IMG/VR virus record: IMGVR_UViG_3300045988_094266
Reading direction: 5' to 3' (one strand)
Origin: a virus
DNA: 23,961 bases
In this document: one piece after another, positions 1-23,961 of the stretch
How positions within the stretch are numbered: the stretch's first letter is position 1
How the letters are laid out: each line of letters opens with the position of its first letter
Translations under genes and position numbers: made by a program
The notes under the pieces: generated by a model
Databases searched by the model: none
The model's input: the letters and a program-made list of their open reading frames with translations, nothing else
What the model was told of the DNA's origin: nothing

Positions 1-52
1 TACATTCCATAGATATTTTCTCCTTTCATCTAAAACCTTTAAAAAAGTACAC

Positions 53-81
53 TTTACTGAACTTGGTCAACTATATATAAT
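53..81 (+). promoter_or_regulatory. sigma-70-like promoter (-35 TTTACT 53-58, 17-bp spacer, -10 TATAAT 76-81) inside the IR core, pointing at gene 248
   Basis: Consensus -10 hexamer with 17-bp spacing. The -35 straddles the IR arm boundary. No equivalent promoter was found on the opposite strand of the core. Confidence 0.4.
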
Positions 82-133
82 TTATCTACTCTTTCTTTCA
101 TATATATTTGAAAAGAGTAAGATACTCACTTTT

Positions 134-168
134 GGGAAAAGGGTTTCTTACCCTTTTCCCAATTTTTT
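134..168 (+). terminator. rho-independent terminator-like hairpin (GGGAAAAGGG-tttctta-CCCTTTTCCC) plus T-run, between promoter and gene 248
   Basis: Perfect 10-bp GC-rich stem with a 7-nt loop, followed by AATTTTTTGTT. It lies in the leader between the putative promoter and the first + gene. Confidence 0.6.
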
Positions 169-247
169 GTTATCTAGACAGAAGAAGTATTTTTCCTGTT
201 AAAAAGTGTACTTTTTTAAAGGTTTTAGATGAAAGGAGAAAATATCT

Positions 248-886
248 ATGGAATGTATTTTAACTGGATAGGTTAAAAACCAAAATGCTATTACCGTACC
301 AGGAGGCGGTAGCGCAGAAATGGGAGAAACATTAGGGTTAGGACCTTATACTATTGAATTTGATGAAGAAGATAATGAAAATCTTACTGCATCATCAATA
401 GAATATAATAATGAAACTTCAAGTATGAAAGCCACTAATGTTCAATCAGCTATTGATGAGCTTTTTACCGATGTCAGTGAGGGCAAAACCCTAATAGCGA
501 CCGCAGTCACTGACAAAGGAGTAGAAACTGCGGCGACCGATAGTTTTTCAACTATGGCAGATAAGATAGGATAGATTACAACAGAAACCCCTATAGAAAC
601 GGTGGATATTATATTTGAATCATTGAGTGGTATAAGTGGATGTACTGTAATAATAGAATATGAAAATGCGCCAATGTCAGTATGGGTAGTGTAGAAAAAT
701 AATTATAAAGTGATAAAAAATAGTATTATAACTATAAATGCCGGTTCTTCTTCAGGACTTAAAATTACTCCTCAGTCTGCATATGAAAGTTTGGGAGCTA
801 TATTAATAAATAATAATTATCAAGTTATAGCATATAAAATTATTGGTCCCGCTACAATTACTTCTACTGGAGGTAATATTAATTAA
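248..886 (+). CDS. tail-fibre / receptor-binding-like protein (about 212 aa; alternative start ATG 320); 3 in-frame TAG codons (269, 572, 692)
   Basis: The ORF is continuous to TAA 884-886 when TAG is read as a sense codon. It has a TNVQSAIDELF...GKTLIATAVTDKG motif reminiscent of Firmicutes phage fibre proteins. RBS GAAAGGAG precedes 248 and AGGAGG precedes 320. Confidence 0.55.
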
Positions 887-908
887 ATTTAGGAGGTAGT
901 ATTATACT

Positions 909-1307
909 ATGATAAAAGTAAATGGGAAAAAGGTTGCTGGAATAGGGTAGCCTGGATTAAACGGTAAATCTGCTTATGAAACAGCTAAAGAAGGAGGGTT
1001 TACTGGAACTGAAAAGGAGTTCAATACTATATTAGCAAATTCTGCACTTAAACCTATTATTAAATTGATAACTCTATATTCATCAGCTTGGTCTAATAAT
1101 ACTCAAACAGTAAATATAATTGGAGTATTGAGCGATGAGGGCAAATAGATAATTTGTCCAACTCCAACAATAAAAGATATAGATATATATAATAATTCAG
1201 GCATTTAGTGTATAAATCAACAAGAAAATAGTTTAACTTTTAAAGCCCAAAAAATTCCAGAAAATGATATATAGATATATATAATTTTGTAGGAGGTGCG
1301 AACATGA
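909..1307 (+). CDS. tail-fibre-like protein with collagen-like/fibre motif GQPGLNGKSAYETAKEGGFTGTEKEF (132 aa, 5 TAG codons)
   Basis: RBS AGGAGG lies 9 nt upstream of ATG 909. The G-x-x / KSAYE-A---GF-GTE-E motif is typical of phage fibre and host-specificity proteins. The gene ends at TGA 1305-1307, overlapping the next ATG (ATGA). Confidence 0.5.
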
Positions 1308-1552
1308 TTATTAACCAAACTTTTCAGACGGAAAAGTATTCAATAATAGATAAAACAAGCCTTCAATATGGCTATCCAGTAAGAGCAACCCCTGGAGAAA
1401 TTGTTTACAGCAGTCCTATGAGTGCAGGAATATCAGATAATGTATATTTAATAAAAGATGGAAGCTCTATTGATGATGTTTATTCAGATGGTAGATATAA
1501 ATTTATAATGCCAGAAGGCGATGTTTTGATTGCTAGAGATTATCCTTGGTAA
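1304..1552 (+). CDS. hypothetical small protein (82 aa), possible fibre C-terminal or assembly module
   Basis: Intact ORF with RBS AGGAGG. Its start is translationally coupled to the previous gene. It ends at TAA. Confidence 0.5.
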   Translation: MIINQTFQTEKYSIIDKTSLQYGYPVRATPGEIVYSSPMSAGISDNVYLIKDGSSIDDVYSDGRYKFIMPEGDVLIARDYPW

Positions 1553-1586
1553 TCTTATATATATTATATAATAAAATTTTATATAA

Positions 1587-2294
<708 letters not shown>

Positions 2295-2345
2295 AGTTAA
2301 ATTATCTTCCTATTGTTTTATATATAATATAAAGGAGGAATTAAT

Positions 2346-2735
2346 ATGCCTGAAATTGTTATTCAAATATTCTAGCTTTGTATTCTTCCTCTGCTTGGTA
2401 TTTTAACAAAATATCTCATAGATTTCCTCTCTGCTAAACGAGATGAGTTAAATTCTAAGACAGAGAATGAAACAGCTTAGAAATACACCACTATGATATT
2501 TGATACTATTACTAAATGTGTAATAGCTACAAATCAGACTTATGTTAATAGCTTAAAAGAACAAGGTGCTTTTGATGCTGAGGCTCAAAAAATTGCATTT
2601 GATAAGACTATGGAATCTGTATTAGAGATCTTATCATCTGATGCAAAACAATATATTATTGAGACAACTGGCGACTTAAATACTTACCTAACTAATCTCA
2701 TTGAAGCCGCGGTTAATGAAAATAGAGCATCATGA
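2346..2735 (+). CDS. small membrane protein, N-terminal TM helix then soluble domain (130 aa, 2 TAG); possible holin-like
   Basis: RBS AAAGGAGG precedes ATG 2346. There is a hydrophobic N-terminus (IVIQIFQLCILPLLGILTKYLIDFL). The gene ends at TGA 2733-2735. Confidence 0.45.
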
Positions 2736-2738
2736 TAT

Positions 2739-2770
2739 AATGGGGTTACTATGCCCCATTATATTTTTAT
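2739..2770 (+). terminator. rho-independent terminator (AATGGGG-loop-CCCCATT plus ATATTTTTAT)
   Basis: 7-bp GC stem immediately after the stop of gene 2346-2735, followed by a T-rich tract. Confidence 0.5.
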
Positions 2771-2777
2771 ACTAAAA

Positions 2778-2825: not shown

Positions 2826-2871
2826 ATATAATAATGAAAGGCCAAGGGAATATTTTAAAGGAGGTAAAACT

Positions 2872-3297
2872 ATGGCAGTTAATTATCCATACTATATACC
2901 ACAACAATAGCAACCTTAGTATGCGGCAATCCCTTATGCTCCGCAACAAAGAATGCCCTATGTGGAATAGCCCTAGATTGGAATTAAAGGTCGCCCAGTT
3001 TCTTCAATAGAAGAAGTAAAGGCAACTAGCATTGACTTTGATGGTTCTGTATTTTTCTTTCCTGATTTAGCTAATAAAAAAATATATACAAAATAGATAA
3101 ATTTAGATGGAACTTCAACACTTAATGTTTATGAATTAAAAAATATTCCGATTGAAACAGTTGTCAATCCTTCTTAGTTTGTTACTAGAGAAGAATTTGA
3201 AACCGTACTTGCTCAATTAAAAGAAAAAATTGCGCCATAGGCAAATAAATAGCCTACAGCGCAATAGCAGGAATCAAAGCCAAAATTAGATTTTTAA
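2872..3297 (+). CDS. Gln/Pro-rich hypothetical protein (141 aa) with 9 TAG codons, several inside poly-Q runs (CAA CAA TAG CAA)
   Basis: Strong RBS AAAGGAGG. The protein reads MAVNYPYYIPQQQQPQYAAIPYAPQQ...APQANKQPTAQQQESKPKLDF. TAG is embedded in CAA/CAG runs. The gene ends at TAA 3295-3297. Confidence 0.6.
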
Positions 3298-3309
3298 GGA
3301 GCCGATAAA

Positions 3310-3543
3310 ATGAATCCAATGTAGTTAATTCAAATGATTAGGAATGGATAGAATCCTCAATAGCTAACTCTAAATATATTAGAAAGTTAGATGGGGAATA
3401 ATCCGTTTGGAGCTAATTTGTTAGATCTTGCCAAATAGAATAAAACCGAAGAGATTGAACAAATAGCTAGAAATCTTTTATCCCAAAGAGGATTAAATTA
3501 TGACAAGGAGTTTGCTGACTTTAAGAAAATGCTCGGCCTTTAA
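3310..3543 (+). CDS. hypothetical small protein (77 aa, 5 TAG codons)
   Basis: RBS AAGGAG precedes ATG 3310. The reading frame is continuous to TAA 3541-3543 only under TAG = sense. Confidence 0.45.
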
Positions 3544-3568: not shown

Positions 3569-4474
3569 ATGTTCAATTCTAACAATGGATACTCTTTAGC
3601 TGATATTGCTGCTGCTACAGGTGGCAATGATCGTAACAATGGCGGAATTTGGAACGACGGAGGAGCTTGGTGGATTATAATTCTATTCTTATTCTGCTTC
3701 TCTGGATGGGGAAATGGATTTGGCGGTTTTGGTGGATATGGAGCCAACAGTAATGGTCTGGGTTCTCCTTCTGGTCAAGGTTGGGCAACTCGCGCAGACA
3801 TTAATGAAGGTTTTGCTTTCCAAAATCTACAGTCTGGAATTAATTCTATCCAGTAGGGAATCTGTGATAGCACATATGCTTTAAATAATGCTTTAACAAA
3901 TGGTTTCCATGGAGTAGACAACGCAGTATGCAATCTTGGATATCAGACACAGCAAGGTTTCAATAGCACTAATGTAGCTTTAATGCAGGGTCAAAATGCT
4001 TTAGCTACACAGCTTTCTAACTGTTGTTGTGATACAAAATCTGCAATTCAGCAAGCAAGTTTTGATAATCTCACAAATCAAAATGCTATTTCTCGTCAAA
4101 TTGCAGATTGTTGCTGCGAGACTGGTCGTCAGATTGAGAGAGGTTTTGCCGACGTCAACTACAATCTAGCGACTAATACTAATGCACTACAGACTTCTAT
4201 GGCCAATAATACTCGTGATATTATTGACAGTCAAAATGCTGGAACTCGTGCAATTCTTGATTATCTCTGCCAGGAGAAAATCTCTGATTTGCAAAACGAG
4301 AATCAAGCTCTTCGTCTCGCTGCTTCTCAACAGGCTCAAAATAACTTTATTACAGCTAACCAAGAAGCTCAAACTGCGGAGCTTATCCGTAGATTAGGAC
4401 GTGATAATCCAATTCCCGCTTACGTAGTACCAAACCCCAACTGTTGCTATAGCATGAATAGTTGCGGATGCTGA
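3569..4474 (+). CDS. Cys-cluster, Asn/Gln-rich membrane-anchored protein (302 aa, 1 TAG at 3854); unknown family
   Basis: RBS AAAGGAGG. It has an N-terminal TM helix plus a Gly-rich tract (GGAWWIIILFLFCFSGWGNGFGGFGGYG). A roughly 33-aa periodic region carries CCC motifs (NCCCDTK..., DCCCETG...), a coiled-coil-like N/Q repeat and a C-terminal CCYSMNSCGC. It ends at TGA 4472-4474. Confidence 0.6.
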
Positions 4475-4502: not shown

Positions 4503-4925
4503 ATGGAAATTATTGCGAATGCCGTACAAACAGTACAAGCTAATCAAAATGTCCTTTTTACCGATGCGGTAGTAGGCTGTTCCAACAGCCTACTACATCG
4601 CGTTGGAAGTGGACTAGTAACACTAAAAGGTAATACATCTACTCAATGCAGAGCTAGATATAAAGCTCATTTTAGCGGTAATATTGCAATCGCCGCAGGT
4701 GGAACAGCAGGCCCAATTTCTTTAGCTATTGCTATCAATGGAGAAGGTGTAGCTTCTACTACTATGATTTCTACTCCAGCGGCGGTAGGAGATTATAATA
4801 ATGTAGCAAGTTCTATATTTATTGATGTGCCAAGAGGATGTTGCTTTGAAATTGCAGTAAAAAATGTTTCTACTCAGACTATTGACGTCCAAAATGCAAA
4901 TTTAATTATTGAAAGGGTGGCTTAA
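4503..4925 (+). CDS. BclA C-terminal-like (C1q/TNF-type jelly-roll) domain protein, 140 aa
   Basis: RBS AAAAGGAG. The pattern VLFTDAVVG...IAIAAGGTAGPISLAIAINGEGVASTTM...IFIDVPRGCCFEIAV...ANLIIERV resembles BclA-C/exosporium or phage fibre tip domains. There are no TAG codons. Confidence 0.5.
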   Translation: MEIIANAVQTVQANQNVLFTDAVVGCSNSLLHRVGSGLVTLKGNTSTQCRARYKAHFSGNIAIAAGGTAGPISLAIAINGEGVASTTMISTPAAVGDYNNVASSIFIDVPRGCCFEIAVKNVSTQTIDVQNANLIIERVA

Positions 4926-4927: not shown

Positions 4928-5542
4928 ATGGAAAGACTTAAACATATGAAAGAAACTCTTATTGGGTGTGTTCAATCATAGCTAAGTGATATTCATAATG
5001 TAGACACTCATGAATTAGGCGAGGCTATTGATATGATAAAAGATTTAGAGCAGGCAATGTACTACTGTTCTATTGTAAAAGCAATGGAAGAGAAAGATGA
5101 AGAACATAGAAAGTATTACATTCCAATCACTCCTCCATATTATTTACCCGATAGAGATATGGACAGAAATGAATGGGGTAGAATGTACTATCCTCGTTCA
5201 AGAGATTCTCAAGGGAGATATACTGAATCAGATAGAGGAGATATGCAGGATAGCCGCAGAAACTATGGAGATAGACCAATATATTATAACGAGAAAGAAT
5301 TTCCAATGGATTTAAGAGATTCTCGCGAAGGTCGTAGTCCTATGATGCGTCGGATGTATATGGAATCAAAAGAGCTTCATAAAGATAAAGAAATAAAGAT
5401 GAAAGAATTAGATAAATACATGAAAGAATTAAGCGAAGATTTAGTTGAAATGATTGATGACGCAAGCCCAGAAGAAAGACAGTTATTAGAAAAGAAAATT
5501 TCTGCTCTTGCTACAAAAATATCTTCTTTAAACCATGTTTAA
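4928..5542 (+). CDS. hypothetical protein with disordered Arg/Asp/Tyr-rich centre (204 aa, 1 TAG at 4979)
   Basis: ATG 4928 is in frame with ORF 5033-5542 through TAG. The protein is low-complexity (YYPRSRDSQGRYTESDRGD...) with a C-terminal coiled coil. Confidence 0.45.
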
Positions 5543-5861
5543 TATTAATGGAGAAGGATGGAAATTATTTTTAACTTCTCCAATTCATCCTATGTTAATT
5601 AGAAGCGATGGACAGTTAACGATAGGAGCTTGTGATAATGAAACTAAAGGTATTTATATTAATGGAGAATTATCTCCATTAATGATGAAAAAAGTTTTAT
5701 GTCATGAGTTAACGCACGCTGCAATGTTTAGTTATGGAATAGAATTGTCTATCGAACAAGAAGAATTACTAGCTGATTTAATTGCTACATATGGCTAGGA
5801 AATAATAAATATGACTAATTCTATTTTTAATCGCTTAAAGAAGGATGGGGAACTCAAGTGA
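5535..5861 (+). CDS. HExxH zinc-metallopeptidase-like small protein (ImmA/IrrE- or SprT-like), 108 aa if TAG 5796 is read through
   Basis: The motif is VLCHELTHAAM. ATG 5535 overlaps the stop of the previous gene. The ORF runs through TAG 5796-5798 to TGA 5859-5861, which lies inside the terminator stem. The C-terminal extension is uncertain. Confidence 0.45.
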
Positions 5862-5877
5862 GTTCCCCATTTTTTTA
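5845..5877. terminator. bidirectional rho-independent terminator between the convergent + and - blocks
   Basis: Perfect 12-bp inverted repeat ATGGGGAACTCA / TGAGTTCCCCAT, flanked by an A-run upstream and a T-run downstream. It sits between the convergent gene ends at 5861 and 5875. Confidence 0.7.
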
Positions 5878-6306
5878 TTCTGATCTAATTTCTAACTCCA
5901 TGGTTTTCTCATAATATTCTTTAGCTTGTCCATTACCACCTAAAGAATGATATAGTTTGTAAAATTCTGTTAGTTGATCATACTAATCTTGAGTCATATA
6001 TCCTTGCTTTATATATATTTTACATAGCTAAACAAGTCTGAATCTATATGAAGCTATAATTAATGTTAAATCTTGTCTTTCTTTATCTTCTATTTTCCGT
6101 ATATATGTTCTTAATTCTTCAATATCTTCTACTATTGGTTTTAATTTTTCGTCAATAAGTTCTACTATATCATTATTTTCTTTTTCCTATAACATTTTTT
6201 TATATGCCATTAACTATTTATATAAGTATCTACAAAAAGCCAACGCTCCGGCGGAAATTAGACCAAAAAGAATTTCTACTATATGTTCTGTAATAAAAGC
6301 AAACAT
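5875..6306 (-). CDS. membrane protein with N-terminal TM and coiled-coil cytoplasmic domain (143 aa, 4 TAG); holin-like?
   Basis: RBS AAGGAGG sits 5 nt before ATG 6306. The N-terminus is MFAFITEHIVEILFGLISAGALAFC. It ends at TAA 5875-5877. It is absent from the ORF track because it is fragmented by TAG. Confidence 0.55.
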
Positions 6307-6378: not shown

Positions 6379-6858
6379 TTACCAAGCACATTGATGCTAT
6401 TTAATATGCGCAAGGCCGATACAAACAGCGTCACTTTCATCCTGTGTGGGTTTTTTCCCATAATTATAAAAAACATAATTCTGAGCATTTTTTTTCTACT
6501 CTGGTCGAGTTTTTCCTTTTATACCCAATAAAGATTTCCATGTTACTGCTAAAATAGAAGAATGGGGAATTTTTTCTTGTTCTAGTAATTCAGAAACTAC
6601 CCCATATACTTCTGCTAAAATCTTAAAAGTCTAAACATTATTAGAAATATTATTCTACTACTATATATCTTCAAAAACTACTTCATCTATATGATACTAT
6701 TCAATAAGATCTTTAATCTTCTATCTTATTTTTACTAATCTAGTATCTATATTATTATCTTCAACAGCAAATTTACCAAAAGTTTTTAACTTATTATCTT
6801 CAAAGACCGCATACCCGGTAATCTTCGAACTCTAATCGAGTGATAATAGATTACTCAT
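6379..6858 (-). CDS. ruvC: RuvC-like Holliday-junction resolvase (159 aa) with 9 TAG codons incl. TAG-TAG-TAG
   Basis: ATG 6858 overlaps the dUTPase TGA (ATGA). Read with TAG = Q, the frame gives MSNLLSLDQSSKITGYAVFEDNKLKTFGKFAV...IDEVVFEDIQQQNN...TWKSLLGIKGKTRPEQKK...QDESDAVCIGLAHIKQHQCAW. This matches the RuvC pattern (G-D-G, ITG-AV, E, K-K-K, DESDAxxIAL-H). It ends at TAA 6379-6381. Confidence 0.75.
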
Positions 6859-7421
6859 TTAGATGTGCTTCCGAATCCACCAAGTCTTTCTCCAGTTGCA
6901 TTATCGTCATCAGTAATTTGATAACTCTTAATAATTCCTTGTCCAATTTTATCTCCACGCTTTAACTGAATAGCAAAAGGAGATAAATTAACAAGCTGGA
7001 AAAAGATCTCTCCTTCATTATCTGGATTATCACAATAATCGGCATCAATAATACCAACGCTATTTCCGCAAATAATCCAATGTTTAAGAGGAGTGGAACT
7101 ACGAACACTTAATTCAAGATATTGACCAGGATTTAAATGACATTTCATTCCTGTTGATACAAGAGTAATCTTAGACTTTAATTCTTTAGTAAGATTAGCC
7201 ATATCATCAAGAGTAAAAGGGCTCACAAATCCATAAAAATCCTTGTCACTATCTTTTTCAAAAATATGGTCTTGAATTTTAGAAGTTAAAAAATTCATTG
7301 GAGGTAGAACTGTATCCTCTGCGACTACGAAATCATAACCTGCGGAATTGGCGGTCGCGCGGGTTGGAATAGGTAGATCAATGTCACTAAAGCGACTTAC
7401 TTTCTCAAAATATACACTCAT
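6855..7421 (-). CDS. dut: dUTPase (188 aa), no TAG codons
   Basis: The motifs are ATANSAGYDF, GIIDADY and RLGGFGSTSK. RBS GGAGG precedes ATG 7421. It ends at TGA 6855-6857. Confidence 0.85.
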   Translation of the reverse strand: MSVYFEKVSRFSDIDLPIPTRATANSAGYDFVVAEDTVLPPMNFLTSKIQDHIFEKDSDKDFYGFVSPFTLDDMANLTKELKSKITLVSTGMKCHLNPGQYLELSVRSSTPLKHWIICGNSVGIIDADYCDNPDNEGEIFFQLVNLSPFAIQLKRGDKIGQGIIKSYQITDDDNATGERLGGFGSTSK

Positions 7422-7422: not shown

Positions 7423-7665
7423 TTATTCCTCCGTAATGGTAATTGGCATAATGCCTTCTGGTTCTTTCTCGTTGTCAATAGTAATAGTAGCGGTGACGAG
7501 TTGATACTCTTCAACTATTTCACCTTTTTGCTTAATATATTTAGTAGTGTATTTAAATGAAGTTAATTCTCCTACCGAGGTTTTTTCTAACCATTTGCGC
7601 AATCTAAGAGCATCTTCTACAGTAGGCACCCTATAAGTATTTGTAGACTTTAAATTATAAAACAT
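7423..7665 (-). CDS. hypothetical protein (80 aa)
   Basis: ATG 7665 follows RBS GAGGG. It starts right after the TAA of the upstream gene and ends at TAA 7423-7425. Confidence 0.45.
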   Translation of the reverse strand: MFYNLKSTNTYRVPTVEDALRLRKWLEKTSVGELTSFKYTTKYIKQKGEIVEEYQLVTATITIDNEKEPEGIMPITITEE

Positions 7666-7666: not shown

Positions 7667-7933
7667 TTAAATTCCCTCAACTGTAATTTTACTATTTGAA
7701 TACATATTTTTTTCCAAATCATTTACAAGTTTATTGATTTCTCCTGTTATTGCAAAAGGAGCATGAACTTGTATACTATATATTCCGTTTCCATAAGCAA
7801 TTCCTACAAGGGCTTCAGCTAATCCATTAATATCAGAGCATACTTTCATTTGTTTTTGTAGTCCATCATCAACAACATATACAGCAGATTCCATAGCAAA
7901 TGGATCATAATTTACAATAATAGCATTTGTCAT
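7667..7933 (-). CDS. hypothetical protein (88 aa)
   Basis: Intact ORF. Its ATG overlaps the stop of the upstream gene (ATGA). Confidence 0.45.
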   Translation of the reverse strand: MTNAIIVNYDPFAMESAVYVVDDGLQKQMKVCSDINGLAEALVGIAYGNGIYSIQVHAPFAITGEINKLVNDLEKNMYSNSKITVEGI

Positions 7934-8274
7934 ACCTATATCACCCCTTTTGTATAATCAAAGAACGCATACATATCACATTTCTCTCCATGTAAAATCC
8001 AAATTTCTACAATATTTCCATTTATCTCTATTGCCTTGATTTCTCCAAGTGTCTTAGAAACAGAAATAATCTCGCTTGCCATTTTATTTTTATTTACATC
8101 GTTTTCATAGGTAAATAAAGTAAAATATTTATTATCGTGATTAAGCATCATATAATATCTAGAATTATTGGAATCTAAGAATGTGATAATATTTCTTTTA
8201 GCTTTCTCTAATTCAGCCTTTGTCATTTTTGGAAGGGAGGCATATCCCGCTTGATTTAGCTCGTATAAAGTCAT
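7930..8274 (-). CDS. hypothetical protein (114 aa, 1 TAG at 7936-7938, ends TGA 7930-7932)
   Basis: ORF 7936-8274 continues through TAG for two codons to a TGA that overlaps the next ATG. Confidence 0.45.
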
Positions 8275-8310: not shown

Positions 8311-8853
8311 TTATTTTATTCTGTCAACAATAATTGCACCAATAGCATTGCCTATTGTAACTACTATTAAAAATAATATTACATCAATAGAAAGCACACC
8401 TGCGGCCAAAGTGTAACAAAGATCTGCAATACAGTGTTCTCCGCCGAATAATATAAAACCTGTTACGCAGACTGGCACCATATAATCTTTATTTCTTTTA
8501 AACGAGGATACTGCCGAATATATAAATATACCACAAACCATCCCCTTTAAGAAAACTAAATATAGTGGGATTGCGATCTTAGCAGAGACTAGAGATAGAG
8601 CGGCTGCGTGCGGAAAGGCTAAGATCCCGCACGCTCCAATAATATTTCCTATTAAAATAATAAGATTATCTTTTATATCATTTTTGCTCTTGATATAACC
8701 AACTGAACCTGTAAATAATTTAAACTACATATTTAATATAGTCAGTAGGCCAATGGAAAACATAATAGCTCCAACTATACCTCCAACAGATAAGTAGATA
8801 TAGCTAGCTATTGCTATCATTAATCCTCCTAAAATACTCTTTACAAAGTTCAT
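8311..8853 (-). CDS. FNT-family (formate/nitrite transporter-like) polytopic membrane protein, short form (180 aa, 1 TAG), translationally coupled to nrdG
   Basis: ATG 8853 overlaps the NrdG TGA (ATGA). There are multiple TM segments. The motifs LNMQFKLFTGSVGY (like GAELFTGN), FGGEHCIADLCY (like SGFEHSIANMF) and VVTIGNAIGAIIV (like VTIGNIIGG) recall the signature regions of FocA-type channels. It ends at TAA 8311. Confidence 0.5.
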
Positions 8854-9323
8854 TTTAGATAAATTATTTTTTGATTGCGGCTTCCTCTAAGAGGTTCCGT
8901 AATATCTCTTTCATGTTCAATATATGGCCCATCAATTAGCACATCAACTAATTGGAATATATTCTAAATAACTGTATCTGTTGAATTTTTTAAATCTTCA
9001 TACAAGTATCCAGTCCATAAATAAACCTTTAAATCAGGAATTGTTTCTTTTGCGGTTTGTATTACCAAATGAGTTAGAAATGTATTTTCTGGACATAGTG
9101 GCTCGCCGCCCATAATACATAGAGTTCTTTTAACTCCATTTGCAGTAAGCCCTTCTAAGATTGAATTAAGGGTTTCATGGGTAAATTCTTTTCCTCCATT
9201 AAAATCCCAAGTCTCTTGATTGTGGCAACCTTGACATCTATGAGGACATCCCTATGTAAAAAAACTCAAAGACACTCCAGGTGCGGCAGAAAAGTCATTT
9301 TTTATAATACCTGCATACTTCAT
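8850..9323 (-). CDS. nrdG: anaerobic ribonucleotide reductase activating protein NrdG (radical SAM, 157 aa, 2 TAG)
   Basis: ATG 9323 overlaps the NrdD TGA. The motif is GCPHRCQGCHNQETWDF, with a CxxxCxxC 4Fe-4S cluster. It ends at TGA 8850-8852. It is missed by the ORF track because of TAG. Confidence 0.8.
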
Positions 9324-11548: not shown

Positions 11549-11980
11549 TTATCTCGTTTTTTGTATATATCTCTACTTTTCCCTTTGTAAAGATTCTAAA
11601 GTCTTTTTGCTTTTTAATATTCCATTACTATCATTATAGTATAAAGAAATGAATGAGTTCAATGCATCACTTGGACCTTGAATCTTTTCGCTTTTTCCTC
11701 CACCAGGCATTGTATTATATCCAACAGAGGGATTGGTAGAATTATAATATGATATATATTGCTTTTCTAACTTATTACTTTCATCTAGCGTAAGATTATT
11801 TTCTAAAATTATATGTTCAAAATTATTCCATCCATATTTCTATATATCATAATAAAAAGATATATTTTCCTTGTATCCATTACCATTTTGCCATCTCTTA
11901 TTTGGATTATCTCCAAATTTGGTTTGTCCAATATATACTTTATTATTTATTTTATTTCTATGCAAATATATACAATACAT
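11549..11980 (-). CDS. free-standing GIY-YIG endonuclease (homing-endonuclease-like, 143 aa, 2 TAG) between gmk and nrdD
   Basis: RBS GAGGTGG precedes ATG 11980. The protein reads MYCIYLHRNKINNKVYIGQTKFGDNPNKRWQNGNGY...ISFYYDIQKYGWNNFEHIILENNLT...YNSTNPSVGYN, matching the GIY-(10)-YIG, R, KYGW.NF and N signature. It ends at TAA 11549-11551, directly upstream of the nrdD RBS. Confidence 0.75.
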
Positions 11981-12035: not shown

Positions 12036-12608
12036 TTAATAAAATTGTCCAAATATAGTATCAACAGCAACATCAATATCTTCTAAGGTGTCGTTTTTAA
12101 GAGTTTTATATTTTATATCATCAAGGAAATGAAAGTCTTCCGTATCTGCCTTATATCTTCTAATAATTTCATTTACATCAGGATTTTCTTCTCTATTTAA
12201 CTATCTTAATAATCTCTATTTACCCGCGGCCCGCACATAAAATACATAAAGCTCAATATTGTCATCTTCTTGTAGACATCTTACTCCTTCAGGGTTAAAG
12301 ACCCCTATATTTATTTTGTCTATTGTTAGACTTTCTCTATCTGTACCATAATGCCAATCATTAAATTCTGTTGCTTCTAGCATATCTCCATTAAGAACTT
12401 TTTTTGTAAATTCATCAATAGATAGAAAATAATAATTAATTCCTTCTTTTTCCCCTTCTCGCGGAGGGCGTGTAGTACAACTGATAATTTCATTGAAATA
12501 AGAAGGATATTTCTCCATAATACTATGGAGAATAGTATCCTTCCCACTTCCTGCTTCACCCATTAACGCTACTATCTTCATCCTCTTCTTCTCCTTGTTT
12601 TCTTTCAC
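12036..12608 (-). CDS. gmk: guanylate kinase-like (d)NMP kinase (about 190 aa; alternative start 12581; 2 TAG codons extend ORF 12216-12608 to TAA 12036)
   Basis: P-loop GEAGSGKDT. The motifs SCTTRPPREGEKEGINYYFLS and EATEFNDWHYGT are present. The C-terminal extension through TAG is RLLRQLNREENPDVNEIIRRYKADTE...NDTLEDIDVAVDTI, which matches the Gmk C-terminal lid/LID-helix pattern. Confidence 0.75.
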
Positions 12609-16480: not shown

Positions 16481-17662
16481 TTAATTCTTTAATATCAATG
16501 TAAGTTTTTCAATGGCCCTTGTAACTGTAGTATATATCCATCTAGCGTGTTCAATTTTATCAAATGGAAATGATTCTTCTAATACTAAAACCTTATCCCA
16601 TTGTGAACCTTGCGCTCTATGTCCAGTAATTGCATAACCAAAATTAAACTCAATAGGAAGATCTGGATTTTCTTTATTTCTCCTAATTAAATATTCTTGT
16701 TGAGGAGTAAAAAACTTTTCTCCAGTAGTTAAAGCGGTATAGTCAATACCAACTTCTCTATATGTATCATTTGTTGTTTCAATATCTGCAAATAAAACAG
16801 GAGCAGACACTAACTTTCCAGCGAGGATATAATCAATAGATTCCATTCTTTTAGTTTTAATATATCCAACAGAGCCATTTATGAGTGGATTTTCATGTTT
16901 TTCAGAGCAAGTATCCCAACAGTTCCTCAAACAAATAATCTTATCATCTATTTCTGGCTCAAATCCTCTACCTAAATCATCTCTAATATAAGAATTAATA
17001 TCATGCCTACTTTTATTGGTAGATACAAGAATCTAGTCTGCCCAAAAATACATTCCATCGCACAGATCATTTTTCTTAAAAACTTGAGCGTCATGACCGC
17101 TAAAAGGAGATAATCTCTTTCCTTCTCTAATATCCATGCTAAGGCAAATAATATCACTTTCTTTTGCTTGACGCATTACTTCATCAAGAAAAATATGCGG
17201 ATTATCCAAAATATGATTATCTTGTTTCTTATCTATTGGAGGAATCTGAAAAGGATCTCCGCAAGCTATTACATAGATATTATGACTTAAAAGCAAATCC
17301 CACATATCTTTAGGAAGCATACTTACTTCATCTACAACAATTACTCTATAAGGCTTTTCAAGAACAGTCCTTGGTTTATAGAAAAATTTACCATTTGGCA
17401 TTTGCTTACTGTAATATAACAATTTATGCGCGGTCATAGCATTATGGCAACCTTTTTCTCGCAATACCTCTGAGGCTTTTCCTGTAAAAGTAATATATGC
17501 AACTTCTTCTTCTGGATCTACCTCAAGAGCTGCTATAATAAAATTAATCAAGGTACTTTTTCCAGTACCTGCGTAACCCGCTATTACAGTATAGGGCTCG
17601 TTGTGATTATATCTATCTATTGCAATGCGCAATCCTTCCTCTTGTTTACGAGTTAATTCCAT
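16481..17662 (-). CDS. SF1B helicase, RecD/Dda-like (about 393 aa; ORFs joined through TAG 17033-17035; alternative start 17677)
   Basis: Walker A AGYAGTGKST. Motifs VIVVDEVSML and GDPFQIPP are present. The C-terminal half has GYAITGHRAQGSQWDKVLV (helicase motif V/VI). RBS GAGG precedes ATG 17662. It ends at TAA 16481. Confidence 0.75.
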
Positions 17663-17906
17663 TTTTCCAAACCTCATAACTAATATTTTCTTGAACTCTA
17701 TAACCCTTTTTCCTTAAATAATCAGCAAATTCATCAGAAGTCATCCAATTAAAAACATATCCTTCAAAAATAGGATGATCTTCTAAAAATGCACCATAAT
17801 CATCTTCTATTCTATCCATAATATCATGTATATCCATATAACCTATTATATACTTATCTATTTGAATAGAATCTAAAAATTTTATAGTTTGTTTTAATTC
17901 TTCCAT
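17646..17906 (-). CDS. hypothetical acidic protein (86 aa)
   Basis: Intact ORF, ending TAA, that overlaps the helicase start. Confidence 0.4.
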   Translation of the reverse strand: MEELKQTIKFLDSIQIDKYIIGYMDIHDIMDRIEDDYGAFLEDHPIFEGYVFNWMTSDEFADYLRKKGYRVQENISYEVWKNGINS

Positions 17907-17943: not shown

Positions 17944-17990
17944 CTGCGGACGGTCGTCTAGGTTCCGGCCAGCCCGCAGATATTTTATTT
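17944..17990. terminator. isolated GC-rich hairpin CTGCGG...CCGCAG followed by TATTTTATTT (only GC island in this stretch)
   Basis: Imperfect stem of about 13 bp. The T-run follows on the + strand and an A-run precedes on the - strand. It lies between - strand genes 17990-18793 and 17646-17906. Confidence 0.45.
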
Positions 17991-18793
17991 TAACTTACAA
18001 AATAATTATATGCGATTATCGCATTATTTTGTCGTACTGTATAACTTCCAGAACCGCATCTTTCATAGCATTTCGCGAACGCTAAAGCAGCATCAGTTAT
18101 ACTTGTCATATTTAGAAAATCTTCGTAATCAAACCCTCTCTTATAGGCATGACCGAATGTATTAAACTCATATTCAATAGTATTTTCCAAATAATTGCAT
18201 TGCTCTTCTAATGAGGCTCCCCAAACCTCAGAATACGCCTTATTCCATTGACACATTCCATAATATGAAGAATTACCTAATTCATATTGAATGTTCAAGG
18301 TATTACCACCAACTTCAGTCATTATATTACCAAGTATTCCAGCACAAACTTGATTATTATAACCTAGGTTTTTGAAATAGCTCCATATATATGTTGCTAC
18401 CGGGTACTCTTTCTCCTTTTGATGCCAGTGTTCCATGAGGTTATCATATACGTTTTGATAGGATTGTCTTAATTCATTAGCTTTATCATATTCATTTACG
18501 GCTAACTCAATAACATCATGGTTTTCAGAATAACCTAATTGCCTAGCGGCATCAGCCATTTGATGTGCGGCATTCATGTTAGAAATTTGTTCCGCAATAA
18601 GCTCAATCAATGTATCTAAATCATTATAGGTATAACTTGTATTGCTGTTATACTGAACTGAATATGCTGATGCAACAGAAATAAATGGGCTGTTGCAACT
18701 ACACATTATAGATAATAAAATGATTAAACTTAGTATAATACTCATAAAACGTCTCATTGTGATTGTTTCCTCCTTTAGTAAGAGGTTGCGCAA
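17990..18793 (-). CDS. secreted lipoprotein with phage-tail-lysozyme-like peptidoglycan hydrolase domain (267 aa, no TAG)
   Basis: Signal peptide/lipobox MRRFMSIILSLIILLSIMCSC. The motifs QVCAGILGNIMTEVGG, YGMCQWNKAY and AFAKCYERCGSGSY...RQNNAIIAYNYF resemble the ICGMLGNM / GLVQWT / NYERAG signature of phage tail lysozyme family domains. It ends at TAA. Confidence 0.55.
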   Translation of the reverse strand: MRNLLLKEETITMRRFMSIILSLIILLSIMCSCNSPFISVASAYSVQYNSNTSYTYNDLDTLIELIAEQISNMNAAHQMADAARQLGYSENHDVIELAVNEYDKANELRQSYQNVYDNLMEHWHQKEKEYPVATYIWSYFKNLGYNNQVCAGILGNIMTEVGGNTLNIQYELGNSSYYGMCQWNKAYSEVWGASLEEQCNYLENTIEYEFNTFGHAYKRGFDYEDFLNMTSITDAALAFAKCYERCGSGSYTVRQNNAIIAYNYFVS

Positions 18794-18796: not shown

Positions 18797-20548
18797 TTAA
18801 AAGTAATACTTCTATCTACTTATAATTTCATAATCTGTAATAATAATTTGTGGTGTCACACTACCGAAGTATCTATTTACTTCTGGTTTACCAATCAAAT
18901 TTATACTCACGCAACCTAATTCACTAGATAAATCTTCTAGCTCCTCTTCGCTTGATTTAAACTTGATGCAAGTAACTCCATTTGGTAATTGAATCTTCAA
19001 AGTAGGATTCTTGTCTCGTGACATAAGACTAATCATGTCATTTGTTACTGCAACATTTTCTACCGCAATTAGCGGTTCGTCGATATTCTATCCCCAAAGA
19101 TACTTAGAATTGCCTAGTTCTAATATATCTTTAGAATTAATATCTGACATAGAGTAAATAAAATCTACCTTATAGCTTGGCGAAAATTCTATATCTTTTA
19201 ATTGATTGTCTGACCATGTAATAAAATCTTCAAAATCTTTTTCATAAATGCCAAAGCCAAAAGCATTTGCGTGCCCCTCAGCTAAAAAGACTAAATTTGA
19301 ATCTCTTACAAATTGTCTAAAATCATTTAATTTAGACTTTTCGTATCCTCTAGCTGATCCTTCCCAAGCATCTTGTCCATTGTTTACAGTCTTTGATAGG
19401 AGAATAACGGGGCGCTTATACTTACTCATTAATTCATTAGCAATTAAACCAGTAATACCTCTATCAACCTACATATCTTCTAGTTTAATTACTAAAAGTT
19501 TATGCTATAATAGATTTTTTTCTTGAATAATATTCTCTATTTGTTCAACTTCGGCATCTCTAGTTCTAGTCTAACGATTCTTAACATTAGTGCAAACTCT
19601 TAATGCTTGCTCTAATCTAGTTTCCTCTTGCCCTTTACATCCTCGTTTAGTAGAAGGAATAAGATCATATGCTTTCCATTCAAGCATACTTTCAAATAAA
19701 ATCTACTTTTCATCTTGAGTACCCATACGAGTAATGGCATTAACAAGAGGAACAATATAAAACGCTACTCCAATAGGAGATAAATCTCCTCTGCCTAACT
19801 AATAAGCATTTTTATCAGCCATACCTTTAATAAAAGGATTGCGGAGACTTGACCTCTGTAGCCCCTATTGAATAAGATAATGAGTTTCAAAATCTCTAAT
19901 ATCCATCATATCTCCTATAAGACCGGTGGCTACAATATCAAGGTAATTGTCCGCATAGGCAGTTCCGCAAATACTATCCATATACTAACACAATTTATAA
20001 ACTACTCCTACACCAGATAACGATTTTGTTGGATAATCGCATAACTGATTATTAACAACACAGGCGTATTCAGATATTTTATCAGCTAAGTGATGGTCTA
20101 TAACTAATACATCAATTCCGCGATTAGCCAATTCTTCATGCTCTTGATAGTCGTTAGAGCTTGAATCCGGTGCAATAACAAGAGAAATATTATCGGGGAT
20201 TAATTCTGGTTTTATTCCATGAATTTTACCAGAATGGAAGTTATAAACAAACTTGTTAATTGCAGAGGGAAACTGCGCATGAAGATAATTTAGCAATAAT
20301 GCAGAAGAGGTGTAACCATCGCAGTCGCTATCTACCTAGACATAAATATAAGAGTCGTCTTTTAAAATGTGCTTAATAATTAGCTTAGCAGCGCTTTCAA
20401 TATTATTAAGAAGTAAGGGAGATAAATTATCTTTTTCTGATACTGTTAAATAATGCTATATATCACCATATTTAATACCTCTGTTAACTAATACCTACTT
20501 TAAAGCACTATAATCCTAATTTCTTGGGTTAATTAATGAATATTCCAA
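18797..20548 (-). CDS. RecJ-like DHH-family single-strand DNA exonuclease (583 aa) with 13 in-frame TAG codons; start codon uncertain (TTG 20548?)
   Basis: Four ORF-track fragments (20296, 19429, 19036 and the unlisted 20548-20297 stretch) share one frame when TAG is read as sense. The motifs are QVDSDCDGYTSSALLLNYL (DHH motif I), VLVIDHH, and a C-terminal OB-like domain. There is no in-frame ATG upstream of motif I. TTG follows AAGGAG and sits directly after the TAA of the upstream gene. It ends at TAA 18797-18799. Confidence 0.7.
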
Positions 20549-20551
20549 TCT

Positions 20552-20836
20552 TTAATCACTCTCCTTATTATGTGATAATCCAGTTCCTTTGCAAGCTCTA
20601 CATTTTATATAGTCATTAAGATCGTTTGGATCTGGCCTATCATCTTCCGCGCAAGATCTAGATCTTAAAACATGACCAGTTCCGTTACAGTACTCACATG
20701 CTTGATTAATTTCTCTAAGTTTCTCTAAACTGTCAAAATAGGGTTGTATTCTCTTATTATAATCATCTGCTAATTTTCCTATTTCTTTTTCTATTACTCT
20801 AATAGCAGGTACTAGATTTAAAATCTCTTTACTCAT
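20552..20836 (-). CDS. small protein with two DnaJ-type CxxCxGxG zinc-finger repeats (94 aa)
   Basis: CEYCNGTGHV and CRACKGTGLS motifs follow an N-terminal coiled coil. There are no TAG codons. It ends at TAA. Confidence 0.5.
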   Translation of the reverse strand: MSKEILNLVPAIRVIEKEIGKLADDYNKRIQPYFDSLEKLREINQACEYCNGTGHVLRSRSCAEDDRPDPNDLNDYIKCRACKGTGLSHNKESD

Positions 20837-21932
20837 AAGGAATTATCCTTTCATTTAGTAACTCTTCAAAAATCTGCGGTCCCTTGTCTATAGGACTTGC
20901 TTTATATGGCAAAATCATTCGTTTGTCAAAGATAGCAGATATGCGTACATTCTTACTATATTTGTTATATATATGAATTAACTTTGCTTTCAATCTCTTA
21001 AATTCATCATCGCTAATTTCGACAAATTGTCTATCAAAAGCAACTATGATTTCATTAACTCCTAAAGATTTAAGTAAATCTATATGATAACTAGATATAC
21101 TACTTCCACAACAAGCTACAGATATATCATTATCGTACCCATAGTAAGACTGATACATAAGACAACTCTTTTCAGATTCAAATATAATTGCAGCTTTTAC
21201 TTTTCTTATATTCTCTTTGCTATGGTTTAAATTATATAAATTCATACTTAAAGGATGATTATATAATTGTCTGTTCACCATAAGAGGTCTATATTTTCCA
21301 TATCTTTCTGCATCTTCAGAAGATAATGTTCTTCCCCTAATTCCTACTAATCTATTATTAATATCAAAGTGAGGAATTGTTATTTGTCCTCCTCCCGGAT
21401 AATACCCAATAAAATTTCTTTTACTAACCTCGGGTAAGATTCCTTCTGCTTCCCATCCAGCAATTCTAGGATAAGAAAATCGAGTAAGAATAATCGGATT
21501 ATATTCCTTCAAGCAAATAGGCTGTTTAGGTTTTGGTAACTGAATATTATGTCTTTTAAAGATATCCCAATCTTCTAATTCTTTTTCTTCATCTTCTAGT
21601 TCTATTCCATCAAAACCAAAATATCCAGCTATATAATCCATAGCATTATATAGTTCCCACTTTTTACCTTCTTGCTTTTTTTTAACCTTTATACATAAAT
21701 CAAATATATCAAAAGTAGGATCTATACATCCAGTATAACATCTAAAAAGTTTTGTATTTTCGTAATAATATAACTTTCTTGATCCCTCTCCTGGAAGATT
21801 ATGACATATAGTTTGGGAGATGAGCCCACCATCTACATATTCAGGCTCACCGCCCCATGCTTCAATTAAATCATAAATTTGTTCTAACTCTAATTTTCCT
21901 TTTAGTTCATCTTTATCATAATAGCGTGACAT
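20829..21932 (-). CDS. DNA primase (CHC2-type zinc finger + TOPRIM), 367 aa, no TAG codons
   Basis: Zinc-finger region CHNLPGEG...FRCYTGC. TOPRIM-like region AAIIFESEKSCLM...VACCGSSIS...VAFDRQ. It sits downstream of the dnaB-like gene. Confidence 0.7.
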   Translation of the reverse strand: MSRYYDKDELKGKLELEQIYDLIEAWGGEPEYVDGGLISQTICHNLPGEGSRKLYYYENTKLFRCYTGCIDPTFDIFDLCIKVKKKQEGKKWELYNAMDYIAGYFGFDGIELEDEEKELEDWDIFKRHNIQLPKPKQPICLKEYNPIILTRFSYPRIAGWEAEGILPEVSKRNFIGYYPGGGQITIPHFDINNRLVGIRGRTLSSEDAERYGKYRPLMVNRQLYNHPLSMNLYNLNHSKENIRKVKAAIIFESEKSCLMYQSYYGYDNDISVACCGSSISSYHIDLLKSLGVNEIIVAFDRQFVEISDDEFKRLKAKLIHIYNKYSKNVRISAIFDKRMILPYKASPIDKGPQIFEELLNERIIPYE

Positions 21933-21934
21933 AA

Positions 21935-22111
21935 TTAAGCATCATATACGGAAACATTTGTTACAGTTCCTTTAAGACCAAATTGCTCATTAATTACTTT
22001 TGCAACATAATCTTTAGGATTTTGTTTCTTCTCCGTCTCGCTTCTATCGGCAAGCATAGCATTAAACATTTTTTTACTCATACGATACTCTAAAGATTGA
22101 TTGTTTTTCAT
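21935..22111 (-). CDS. hypothetical small protein (58 aa)
   Basis: ATG 22111 follows RBS GGAGG. The gene lies between the dnaB stop and the primase start. Confidence 0.4.
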   Translation of the reverse strand: MKNNQSLEYRMSKKMFNAMLADRSETEKKQNPKDYVAKVINEQFGLKGTVTNVSVYDA

Positions 22112-22127
22112 ATTAATTCCTCCAAAA

Positions 22128-23666
22128 TTATTTTTCCCATGCCGCGGGACCTTCATCTACAATTACTCTAATATCTTCAATACTAATCATTTCATGTCTC
22201 CAATTAGTACAGAATTGTGGTAATATACGACAAGTACCTAAATTTGCTGAACACCATAGATAAACTCCTTTATATGATCCTCGTCTATTCTTATAAATAG
22301 ATAATTTTAAATTAGGACGAAGAAGATTTTTATTGCTATCAAGTATTGGATCAAGTTTTACCAAATCTTCATCTGTAACTCCAAGAAGAATCATGCCAAC
22401 ATCAATTCTATCTGCAATACTTTTAGCTCCACGCAACAAATTTTGGTCTGGTGTTTCACTATTCTAATAATCTGCATTTAATTGAGTTGCAGACATAATA
22501 AATATACCATATTTATTTGCTAAATCTTTTAATCTTGCGGAAAGCATGAATAAGATATTATCTTCTCTTAATTTAACTCCGCCAGATTTCTTACTAATTT
22601 CTTCAAGAATCTTGAGAGATGTTTGTAAATAATCGAATAAAACATACTTAACTTCATGTTCACGGATATTCTTTTTTATCTTATTTTCTACATCTTGCAA
22701 AGAAAAATCCGGCAATTCTTCAATCCAAATCGGACTTCTTTTAATAATTTCCGCGGCTTTGAGAACTCGATCCTTTTCTCCATCAAAATATTGGCCATTC
22801 AAGATATGTTCTTCATTTACATCAGAAAGAAATGCTAACATCATAGTTTGCACTTCTCCTTTATCTTGCTCTGTCGCGATAAACAAAGTTGGTTGAGAAG
22901 TTCCGTTTTTAATCCAGCCAAATTGATCATGATAGATCTCATTACACGCAAAATTACAAGCATCTGCAATCATTGATCTAGTTTTTCCAGTTCCTGTAGC
23001 AGCTGACCGCAAATAAAATTTTCGCAATCTTGCGCCTCTTGTTACTGTATTAATCAATGGGCCATATAAAGGAATACCAACTTCTGGATGTTGTTCTAAA
23101 TCACTGATTAAATCGTCGATTCCGTCTCCGGCTTGATACCCTAATCCTAAATCATCTTCAATATATTTACTCTTGATTTCATCTATTTTTACATCAATAG
23201 CATGAGCTATTTCAACTAAACTTGTATTATCTAACCAATCTTCTTGCATTTGTCTCTTTTTAGTATCAAGAATATTATTTGGATCGTAAAGACAGGTTAC
23301 ATCAAGGCCAAAATTATTATATGCCCTTAATAGAGTAAATTTTTTTAATCTATTATAGTAGTAATTAAAAGTATCCTATCGAGCGTTTTGTGATGCTTCA
23401 AGAAGATAATCTACACCTTTATTTTGTTTAAATATAGCATCAAATTTGGGTCTATTCGCTAAATAATCTATAATTGCATCAATATTGACTTGACTGCCTG
23501 TTAGATGAATATTATAGATACTCCCAAAGATAATTTTGTGAAAATCCTCTTGAAAATCATCTTCATGAATTATATATTTATCTGCATCATCGAGAATAGA
23601 GGCATTATTAAATACACACCCAATTATTTGAGTAATTGCTGCTGTATCTACATAGTTACTCTTCAT
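22128..23666 (-). CDS. dnaB: replicative DNA helicase, DnaB family (512 aa; three ORF fragments joined through TAG 23376-23378 and TAG 22464-22466)
   Basis: RBS AGGAGG sits 6 nt before ATG 23666. It has an N-terminal DnaB domain. Walker A is AATGTGKTRSM and Walker B is VLFDYLQTS. The C-terminus after the second TAG (LRGAKSIADRIDVGMIL) matches the DnaB LRESGSIEQDADvvMFL arginine-finger region. It ends at TAA 22128. Confidence 0.85.
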
Positions 23667-23961
23667 GTGTTTCCTCCTCATTTAAGAAAGTAAATAGCTT
23701 TCGTATATGTTTCATTGGTTGTCGCTGAGGAGGCTCTATATGAACTTCTCTTACAGGCAAAATAAATTCTTTTATATCTACCTGCTCATTTCTTTCTCTT
23801 GCTTCCCACAATGCTCTCCAATATAGATATGCTTCATCATAAACAAAAGGAACAATACCAATTCCACCATTGGCCTTTTCAATAGAATTTCCTTTTATCT
23901 CAAAAAAATATTTTAATGTTTTATATATTCCTGTATATGAATAATTTCTATCTTTTTTAAA
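23656..23961 (-). CDS. 3' part of an upstream replication-module gene (partial, continues beyond window); function unknown (helicase loader?)
   Basis: Open frame from the window edge to TAA 23656-23658, overlapping the dnaB start. The C-terminal sequence is ...GIGIVPFVYDEAYLYWRALWEAREKNEQVDIKEF... Confidence 0.35.
   Translation of the reverse strand, partial: FKKDRNYSYTGIYKTLKYFFEIKGNSIEKANGGIGIVPFVYDEAYLYWRALWEARERNEQVDIKEFILPVREVHIEPPQRQPMKHIRKLFTFLNEEETHEE

Follow-up and report, generated by a model that had tools for sequence, protein, structure and literature searches.

The DNA analysed here is a 23,961-base stretch of a virus genome (IMG/VR record IMGVR_UViG_3300045988_094266; 32.5% GC), referred to as the window, from a human-gut phage of ~145-149 kb. 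In this phage the codon TAG appears to be read as glutamine (genetic code 15), with TAA and TGA as the only terminators, an assignment to which we give a probability of about 93%. The same assignment had been made in an earlier reading of the window from its letters and open reading frames (ORFs), here called the sequence-only reading, and codon turnover between relatives, glutamine match rates and conserved protein columns all agree with it.

When only TAA and TGA are taken as stops, 32 genes emerge and 95.6% of the window is coding. Eleven genes occupy the plus strand (248-5861) and 21 the minus strand (5875-23961), so that the two blocks converge. Seventy-two in-frame TAGs, a density of 9.4 per 1000 codons, are spread over 21 of the 32 genes (66%); the sequence-only reading had counted at least 20 genes split by TAG. 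Across the 7,634 codons there is no internal TAA or TGA, and the genes end in 23 TAA, 9 TGA and no TAG. Every TAG-bearing gene stays in one frame across its TAGs, which extends to all of them the continuity noted earlier for the junctions then inspected. Treated as a stop, TAG would leave just 47% of the encoded residues. Shine-Dalgarno sites of the AAGGAGG type stand upstream of most starts, and start/stop overlaps between neighbours were found at nine places, four of them ATGA and five of other types. The strong ribosome-binding sites, the continued use of TAA and TGA and the ATGA overlaps thus all recur as first described, as do the TAG counts given for the RecJ-like, RuvC and recombinase genes, the TAG inside CAA repeats of the Q-rich late gene and the three consecutive TAGs of RuvC (Table 1).

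Protein domains run through the TAGs. Pfam matched the Resolvase domain over positions 2-143 of 145 despite six TAGs in the gene, the RuvC domain over 2-148 of 148 in the nine-TAG gene, and the NRDD domain over 2-562 of 562. End-to-end matches were also obtained for the PHP, polymerase, finger and HHH domains of the DnaE-type polymerase, for DHH, DHHA1 and RecJ_OB in the 13-TAG gene, and for Guanylate_kin, Fer4_12 (NrdG), GIY-YIG, AAA_30/UvrD_C_2 and DnaB/DnaB_C. Complete domains across the TAGs bear out the claim that read-through restores full-length proteins. Total ORF length under alternative stop sets was tried as a further test and proved uninformative, because removing TAA opens even more spurious frames in 32% GC DNA; it was dropped in favour of domain coverage and comparative data.

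Close relatives were collected from IMG/VR and other public assemblies. Two of them, L001 and L004, share 97-99% nucleotide identity with the window, and L002 and L003 share ~84-94%, varying by segment; further out, the RecJ-like protein of L007 is 68% identical and the DnaE of L005 and L006 58% identical. The independent assembly L001 keeps 53 of 56 comparable TAGs, and the TAGs are therefore no assembly artefact. Across relatives 58-99% identical, a window TAG is either kept or replaced, mainly by CAA or CAG. Codon alignment with L003 paired window TAGs with TAG in 37 cases, CAA in 16, CAG in 3 and other codons in 5; with L002 the corresponding counts were 40, 12, 0 and 5. The relatives' own TAGs pair almost exclusively with CAA or CAG in the window. 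Among the 24 TAG changes relative to L003, 19 lead to CAA or CAG, many of them requiring two base changes, while GAA occurs twice, AAG once, and TAT/TAC or AAA never. Relative to L001, three window TAGs are CAA or CAG and five window CAA/CAG codons are TAG, giving eight differences of this kind in the two directions against 12 differences between CAA and CAG. The single TAGs of NrdD (codon 304) and DnaE (codon 742) and one in NrdG (codon 24) are canonical glutamine codons in L001. Essential genes otherwise poor in TAG are therefore still acquiring it, and on these alignments the gain looks like neutral drift.

Glutamine match rates were determined by tblastn, with X placed at the TAG positions and the subject translated with the standard table, so that a subject Q stands for CAA or CAG only. 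For L007, 12 of 21 TAG columns (57%) carried Q, compared with 108 of 155 columns (70%) at the window's own CAA/CAG codons. The corresponding values were 11/31 and 70/163 for L005, and 13/32 (41%) and 67/159 (42%) for L006. Two phages of standard code gave the same picture at lower identity: 6/22 (27%) and 34/113 (30%) for Enterococcus phage VRE9_3, and 3/14 (21%) and 24/96 (25%) for SPbeta. At all distances Q is the commonest partner of TAG columns, at rates near those of true glutamine codons. Partners other than Q fall at variable columns and are equally frequent for ordinary CAA/CAG codons.

Individual conserved columns point to the same residue. In the RecJ-like exonuclease, 7 of the 13 TAG columns are near-invariant Q among 120 homologues, in which the overall Q frequency is 4.6%. 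Many of these 120 database proteins were themselves called with code 15, and the DNA of L007 was hence inspected. All seven Q are encoded there by CAA or CAG, and the three TAGs of the L007 gene lie at other positions, so the argument is not circular. At the Q326 column, Q is found in 7 of 7 comparators without a TAG there. In the serine recombinase, the residues of Sin (2r0q) at five aligned TAGs are Q, V, R, Q and E, the second Q being that of the KRRQAQGI motif; the TAG that had been placed on the conserved motif glutamine is indeed there.

A tRNA able to read TAG was found in the same lineage by walking upstream across its IMG/VR contigs, as the sequence-only reading had foreseen for the full genome. 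That the lineage has no suppressor was briefly considered, and was ruled out when the tRNA cluster was reached on the fifth upstream step; ARAGORN had detected no tRNA in the flanking and related loci scanned before L081, and an Rfam scan of 110 kb at the gathering threshold gave no match. The cluster encodes Val, Gln-UUG, Gln-CUG, Leu, Met, Ser, a tRNA with a CUA anticodon (tRNA-CUA), Leu and Cys. tRNA-CUA is 75 nucleotides long, lies at 7852-7926 in both L081 and L082, and folds as an ordinary cloverleaf with the anticodon loop CUCUAAA. Its 3' end, U72-G73-CCA, is that of both neighbouring tRNA-Gln genes. In contig 093451, tRNA-CUA occupies 50,314-50,388 (+) and DnaE 95,310-99,203 on the same strand, which places the tRNA ~45 kb upstream of DnaE in a long co-directional block. 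The gene is present in the same-lineage contigs 093451 and 075249 and, by pattern match, in 091188. The relatives that bear it have PhoH-like and nicotinamidase proteins 100% identical among themselves, and the PhoH-like protein is also 100% identical in the closest relative of the window. The tRNA-CUA family extends to 16 IMG/VR contigs (L151-L166), with a further copy at L015 12536-12610.

The gut phage phAss-1 has a 136 kb genome with three tRNA-Sup-CTA genes (Babkin et al. 2023, PMC10607447). Its tRNA-Sup1 is 85% identical to tRNA-CUA, against just 37% identity between the DnaE proteins of the two phages; elsewhere in the cluster, no tRNA exceeds 77% identity to any phAss-1 tRNA. Two of the three phAss-1 suppressors lie beside NrdD and the third in an array by the nicotinamidase gene. 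The syntenic sites, beside NrdD and upstream of the nicotinamidase gene, are empty in the present lineage, whose cluster is further upstream. The tRNA alignment suggests a suppressor family shared by, or horizontally spread between, the two lineages. A 91-nucleotide suppressor tRNA variant with an enlarged variable region was seen in L083 and in phAss-1 Sup2.

TAG is used unevenly. It makes up 21% of glutamine-type codons across the window genes, with a range of 0-100% per gene and of 0-69% among genes with more than a handful of such codons (heterogeneity chi-square 105.8, 31 degrees of freedom, p = 4e-10). The share is 0-10% in the polymerase, NrdD, DnaB and primase-like genes (0 of 10 in the last), and it is highest in genes such as RuvC, the RecJ-like exonuclease and the Q-rich late gene (Table 1). 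The late-gene block carries 19.0 TAG per 1000 codons and the replication block 6.6, a roughly threefold difference. In 64 kb of a relative, 49 of 87 ORFs from a crude code-15 gene call are TAG-free, including topoisomerase subunits, NAMPT and a protein resembling the major vault protein (MVP-like).

These differences could mean that TAG encodes glutamine and that its decoding is purposely incomplete or conditional, the TAG load of a gene setting its yield or timing as the suppressor accumulates, so that recoding would be mainly regulatory. A timing model of this kind has already been proposed for recoded phages (bioRxiv 10.1101/2021.08.26.457843). The strong heterogeneity, the denser late block, the TAG-free state of large early enzymes (topoisomerase subunits, NAMPT and MVP-like protein) and the position of the suppressor tRNA, upstream and in the same transcriptional direction, all fit such a role. 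However, TAG-rich and TAG-poor genes are interleaved within one co-directional block, with the RecJ-like gene between the primase-like and DnaE genes, a pattern that a simple early/late gate explains only in part. The exchange of TAG with CAA/CAG between 97-99% identical genomes is nearly as free as that of CAA with CAG (the 8 and 12 differences from L001), and there is no special base context 3' of TAG, as the base that follows it does not differ from that after CAA/CAG (p = 0.25). We consider a mainly regulatory recoding possible but unlikely. A further idea, that the suppressor tRNA is a mobile "code-switch" element of deeply diverged gut phages and that the TAG load of each gene is a tuned, gene-by-gene translational throttle, seems to us more doubtful still.

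Could TAG stand for another amino acid, such as un-amidated glutamate in a transamidating host, tyrosine, lysine, or pyrrolysine supplied by a host Pyl system? In distant relatives, E, Y or K stands opposite a few of the TAGs; that of DnaE is matched by Y in SPbeta, VRE9_3, L005 and L006 and by E in L002 and L003. Many Firmicutes lack a glutaminyl-tRNA synthetase (GlnRS), and charging of a CUA tRNA with glutamine is thus not trivial. ARAGORN labels the tRNA "Pyl", as it does any CUA tRNA. Yet at all distances Q far outnumbers any other partner, residues other than Q occur only at variable columns, and the close relative L003 shows CAA or CAG in most of the changes listed above. Pyrrolysine in particular is at odds with an ordinary 75-nucleotide cloverleaf, as opposed to the atypical tRNA-Pyl, and with TAGs on conserved glutamine columns, and no pyl genes were seen in the lineage gene lists. 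We therefore judge an amino acid other than glutamine very improbable.

That the TAGs are true stops in broken genes, whether of a decaying prophage, of split genes or through sequencing artefacts, would account for the fragmented frames under table 11 and for a window without a suppressor tRNA, but it is practically dismissed by 72 TAGs in single frames with no internal TAA or TGA, by their retention in independent assemblies from different samples, by mostly synonymous substitution (relative to L003, and among the codons listed, GAA is retained 282 times and becomes GAG 57 times and another codon ~22 times), and by a widespread lineage that carries a CUA tRNA.

Several points weigh against the glutamine assignment and the suppression that it entails. 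The amino acid is deduced from sequence comparison alone, and the glutamine identity of tRNA-CUA rests on weak features. ARAGORN detected no tRNA in the window, nor in ~40 kb of contig 068993, its closest relative, which stops short of the tRNA cluster; the suppressor is documented in relatives ~90% identical over the window region and not in the window's own strain, so that the earlier expectation of a CUA tRNA holds for the lineage and not for the window itself. A gene with 13 TAGs requires very efficient suppression, and a plain early/late gate does not account for the interleaving of TAG-rich and TAG-poor genes. A scan of nine lineage loci, translated in six frames, turned up no GGQ release-factor motif, and the release-factor-2 (RF2) gene named in the sequence-only reading as a possible companion of the recoding thus did not appear. 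No GlnRS was noticed in the lineage gene lists that were read, to which no dedicated search was applied. The sole hint at the host is the binning of phage contigs with metagenome-assembled genomes (MAGs).

TAG recoding is known from many gut-phage clades (crAss-like, Lak, Garnet, Amethyst, Agate and others), with 26-71% of genes recoded, structural and lysis genes enriched and replication genes variably recoded, and suppressor tRNAs were detected in just 40% of the genomes recoded at TAG (Borges et al., bioRxiv 10.1101/2021.08.26.457843). For crAss-like phages, TAG-to-Gln decoding has been proved by proteomics (Peters et al. 2022, PMC9523058). As in these phages, the TAGs of the window lie within conserved genes, are denser late and vary among replication genes, and the lineage encodes tRNA-CUA, with no dedicated aminoacyl-tRNA synthetase noticed in lists to which no dedicated search was applied. 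The recoded share of window genes, 66%, is inside the published range. The equation with known uncultivated gut phages therefore fits, and the "very high density" once ascribed to the window does not stand out. RF2 and GlnRS accessory genes belong to some code-15 members only and are not obligatory; unlike some of those phages, the present lineage showed no RF2 gene in the nine loci scanned. TAG-to-Gln recoding is already well documented in gut phages, and the present case adds nothing conceptually new.

The window differs from the known code-15 gut phages in its lineage, which has an SPbeta/EF1-like replication gene order. Megablast of the whole window against GenBank phages gave no match, so that this collection contains no close relative, cultured or deposited, and DnaE is 39-40% identical to those of Enterococcus phages VRE9_1-4/EF1 and Bacillus phage SPbeta (YorL). 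With SPbeta and VRE9_3/EF1 it shares the order DnaB (YorI), YorJ-like, RecJ-like (YorK), Dda/RecD-like, DnaE (YorL), Gmk, dUTPase and RuvC, and a replication block followed by convergent late genes. Pfam matches to YorF and YorH, together with the gene order in L007 and L008, indicate a replication module of the YorF-G-H-I-J-K-L type. Those cultured phages use the standard code and, in contrast to the window, their homologues of these genes contain no in-frame TAG; the gut lineages have therefore acquired recoding as a derived trait.

phAss-1, of the proposed genus Phassvirus, is placed by NCBI under "Caudoviricetes code 15 clade". It resembles the window lineage in its human-gut origin, its genome of ~130-150 kb, the reading of TAG as glutamine, a DnaE-type polymerase, NrdD/NrdG, NAD-salvage genes (NAD, nicotinamide adenine dinucleotide) and the suppressor tRNA. 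It differs in GC content (44.5% compared with 32.5% in the window), and the absence of a megablast match and the diverged DnaE speak for separate genera; neither the ~80%+ nucleotide identity nor the shared synteny with phAss-1 that would mark a Phassvirus was found. A wider monophyletic group has been described that includes Enterococcus phage EF1 and members of ~147 kb and 33% GC with TAG recoding (Babkin et al., PMC10607447). One of these, BK051641_ctUes22 (~147 kb, 33% GC, TAG-recoded; PMC10607447), resembles the window lineage in size and GC. On these alignments the window lineage fits the wider EF1-like group and not Phassvirus.

The TAG-free protein at 1304-1552 is indexed in 1,314 blocks of a public collection, including human gut metagenomes and often contigs of 50-200 kb, and the lineage is therefore widespread. 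The phage probably infects Clostridia; the clue to the host, a weak one, is that whole-phage contigs of ~148 kb share bins with Oscillospiraceae and Eubacterium MAGs. At 290,702 bp, L036 (ENA ERZ28521505 NODE_11) has roughly double the usual length of 145-149 kb. Its probable origin is concatenation, during assembly, of a circularly permuted genome, and not a prophage in a chromosome.

In E. coli supE (glnV44), a tRNA with a CUA anticodon inserts glutamine at UAG in competition with release factor 1 (RF1). Unlike there, TAG supplies about a fifth of the glutamine-type codons of the window and is never a terminator, and suppression in the phage must therefore be near-complete and not a few tens of percent. 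We propose that tRNA-CUA would be made early and charged with glutamine by host enzymes, and that it would out-compete host RF1 at UAG, allowing full translation of TAG-bearing genes. The uneven TAG load would then make genes depend on the suppressor to differing degrees, in line with the timing model mentioned above.

In practical terms, gene calling with table 11 would break this widespread gut phage into fragments, as over half of the encoded residues sit past a first TAG. With table 15, the replication module is recovered whole, together with the end of the late-gene block. An SPbeta/EF1-like lineage, probably of Clostridia, thereby joins the TAG-recoded phages, with recoding that extends to essential replication genes. 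The question common to all such phages is sharpened: near-complete UAG suppression, up to 13 TAGs in one gene, must be achieved against a presumed host RF1 and without an obvious phage release-factor gene.

Table 1. Genes of the window and their in-frame TAG codons. Eleven genes, including dUTPase, are TAG-free.
Feature	Coordinates	Strand	In-frame TAGs	Remarks
Tail-fibre-like gene	248..886	+	3	One TAG is codon 8 of the conserved N-terminal motif MECILTG-TAG
Hypothetical late gene	909..1307	+	5	TGA stop inside ATGA overlap
Small serine recombinase (Sin/resolvase/invertase type)	1671..2294	+	6	GTG start; 2 TAGs align to Sin Q
Hypothetical	2346..2735	+	2	
Q-rich hypothetical late gene	2872..3297	+	9 of 17 Gln-type codons	CAA CAA TAG CAA CCT TAG and CAA CAA TAG CAA at gene start
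Hypothetical	3310..3543	+	5	
Cys-rich hypothetical	3569..4474	+	1	25 CAA/CAG
Hypothetical	4928..5542	+	1	
Hypothetical	5535..5861	+	1	Relatives match Peptidase_M78 weakly
Hypothetical	5875..6306	-	4	All 4 are CAA/CAG-encoded Q in L002 and L003; product possibly membrane-associated, given a hydrophobic N-terminal stretch
RuvC-like Holliday-junction resolvase	6379..6858	-	9 of 13 Gln-type codons (69%)	TAG TAG TAG at codons 66-68
dUTPase	6855..7421	-	0	
Hypothetical	7930..8274	-	1	
Formate/nitrite-transporter-like membrane protein	8311..8820	-	1	Q in L005 and L006
NrdG activase	8850..9323	-	2	Codon 24 is canonical Q in 6/6 relatives compared
NrdD anaerobic ribonucleotide reductase	9320..11533	-	1 of 30 Gln-type codons	Codon 304; canonical Q in all relatives compared and in phAss-1
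GIY-YIG endonuclease	11549..11980	-	2	
Guanylate kinase (Gmk)	12036..12581	-	2	
DnaE/YorL-type DNA polymerase, 1293 residues	12556..16437	-	1 of 52 Gln-type codons (2%)	Codon 742; canonical Gln codon in 99%-identical L001
RecD/Dda-like SF1 helicase	16481..17662	-	1	Q in L005-L007 and VRE9_3
RecJ-like DHH exonuclease (YorK homologue)	18797..20548	-	13 of 28 Gln-type codons (46%)	TTG start
DnaB-type replicative helicase (YorI homologue)	22128..23666	-	2 of 21 Gln-type codons	
TAG-free gene	1304..1552		0	
TAG-free gene	4503..4925		0	
TAG-free gene	7423..7665		0	
TAG-free gene	7667..7933		0	
TAG-free gene	17646..17906		0	
TAG-free gene	17990..18757		0	
TAG-free gene	20552..20836		0	
TAG-free gene	20829..21932		0	
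TAG-free gene	21935..22111		0	
TAG-free gene	23656..23961		0	

At the left end of the window, positions 1-55 and 203-257 form a perfect 55-nucleotide inverted repeat that flanks a 147-nucleotide segment (56-202). The segment carries a site resembling a promoter (53-81) and a hairpin resembling a terminator (132-162). The repeat measures just 14 nucleotides in five other assemblies (AAAAAGTACACTTT / AAAGTGTACTTTTT), where the segment is turned the other way round; window 1-216 is the reverse complement of L034 8739-8954 (compared region L034 8739-8997). The 55-nucleotide repeat was considered as a native inverton arm and rejected, as the native repeat is 14 nucleotides and the first 41 nucleotides of the window mirror the right flank. 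The left end of the window reflects either a genuine inversion of the DNA or a chimera that folded back on itself during assembly of the contig end. Two divergent tail-fibre-like genes that have the N-terminal motif xCIL(A/T)(E/G)-TAG in common flank the segment (loci concerned: window genes 248-1552 and L034 ~6865-8622), and the Sin/Hin-type serine recombinase gene (1671-2294) is 1.4 kb away. Recombinase and segment could plausibly constitute an invertase-driven switch between alternative receptor-binding proteins.

At 4618-5849 of L034-L037, immediately to the left of the window, a reverse transcriptase gene (RVT_1, 405 residues) adjoins a Big_3/DUF6273 tail-fibre-like gene (~541-545 residues). 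From its gene content the locus looks like a diversity-generating retroelement aimed at a receptor-binding protein. The L033 copy of the reverse transcriptase gene seems to be disrupted.

A set of auxiliary genes, noted from translations only, occupies the interval from the tRNA cluster to the replication genes (L065 1-9000 and L039 900-8300). It encodes vWA-like, major-vault-protein-like, nucleotidyltransferase, RNA-ligase-like, Thg1-like (tRNA-His guanylyltransferase-like) and polynucleotide-kinase-like proteins, and the same region holds a full NAD-salvage set (nicotinamidase, phosphoribosyl pyrophosphate synthetase, NAMPT and NadE). This content suggests tRNA/RNA repair and NAD replenishment, possibly as counter-defence.

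TAG-rich GIY-YIG/CxxC-repeat endonuclease-like genes occur at window 11549-11980, L036 15555-16220, and L039 1-870 and 8323-9087. They come and go at differing places in near-identical genomes, a GIY-YIG gene between RuvC and dUTPase being present only in L036, and they have the look of mobile homing endonucleases, recoded in their turn.

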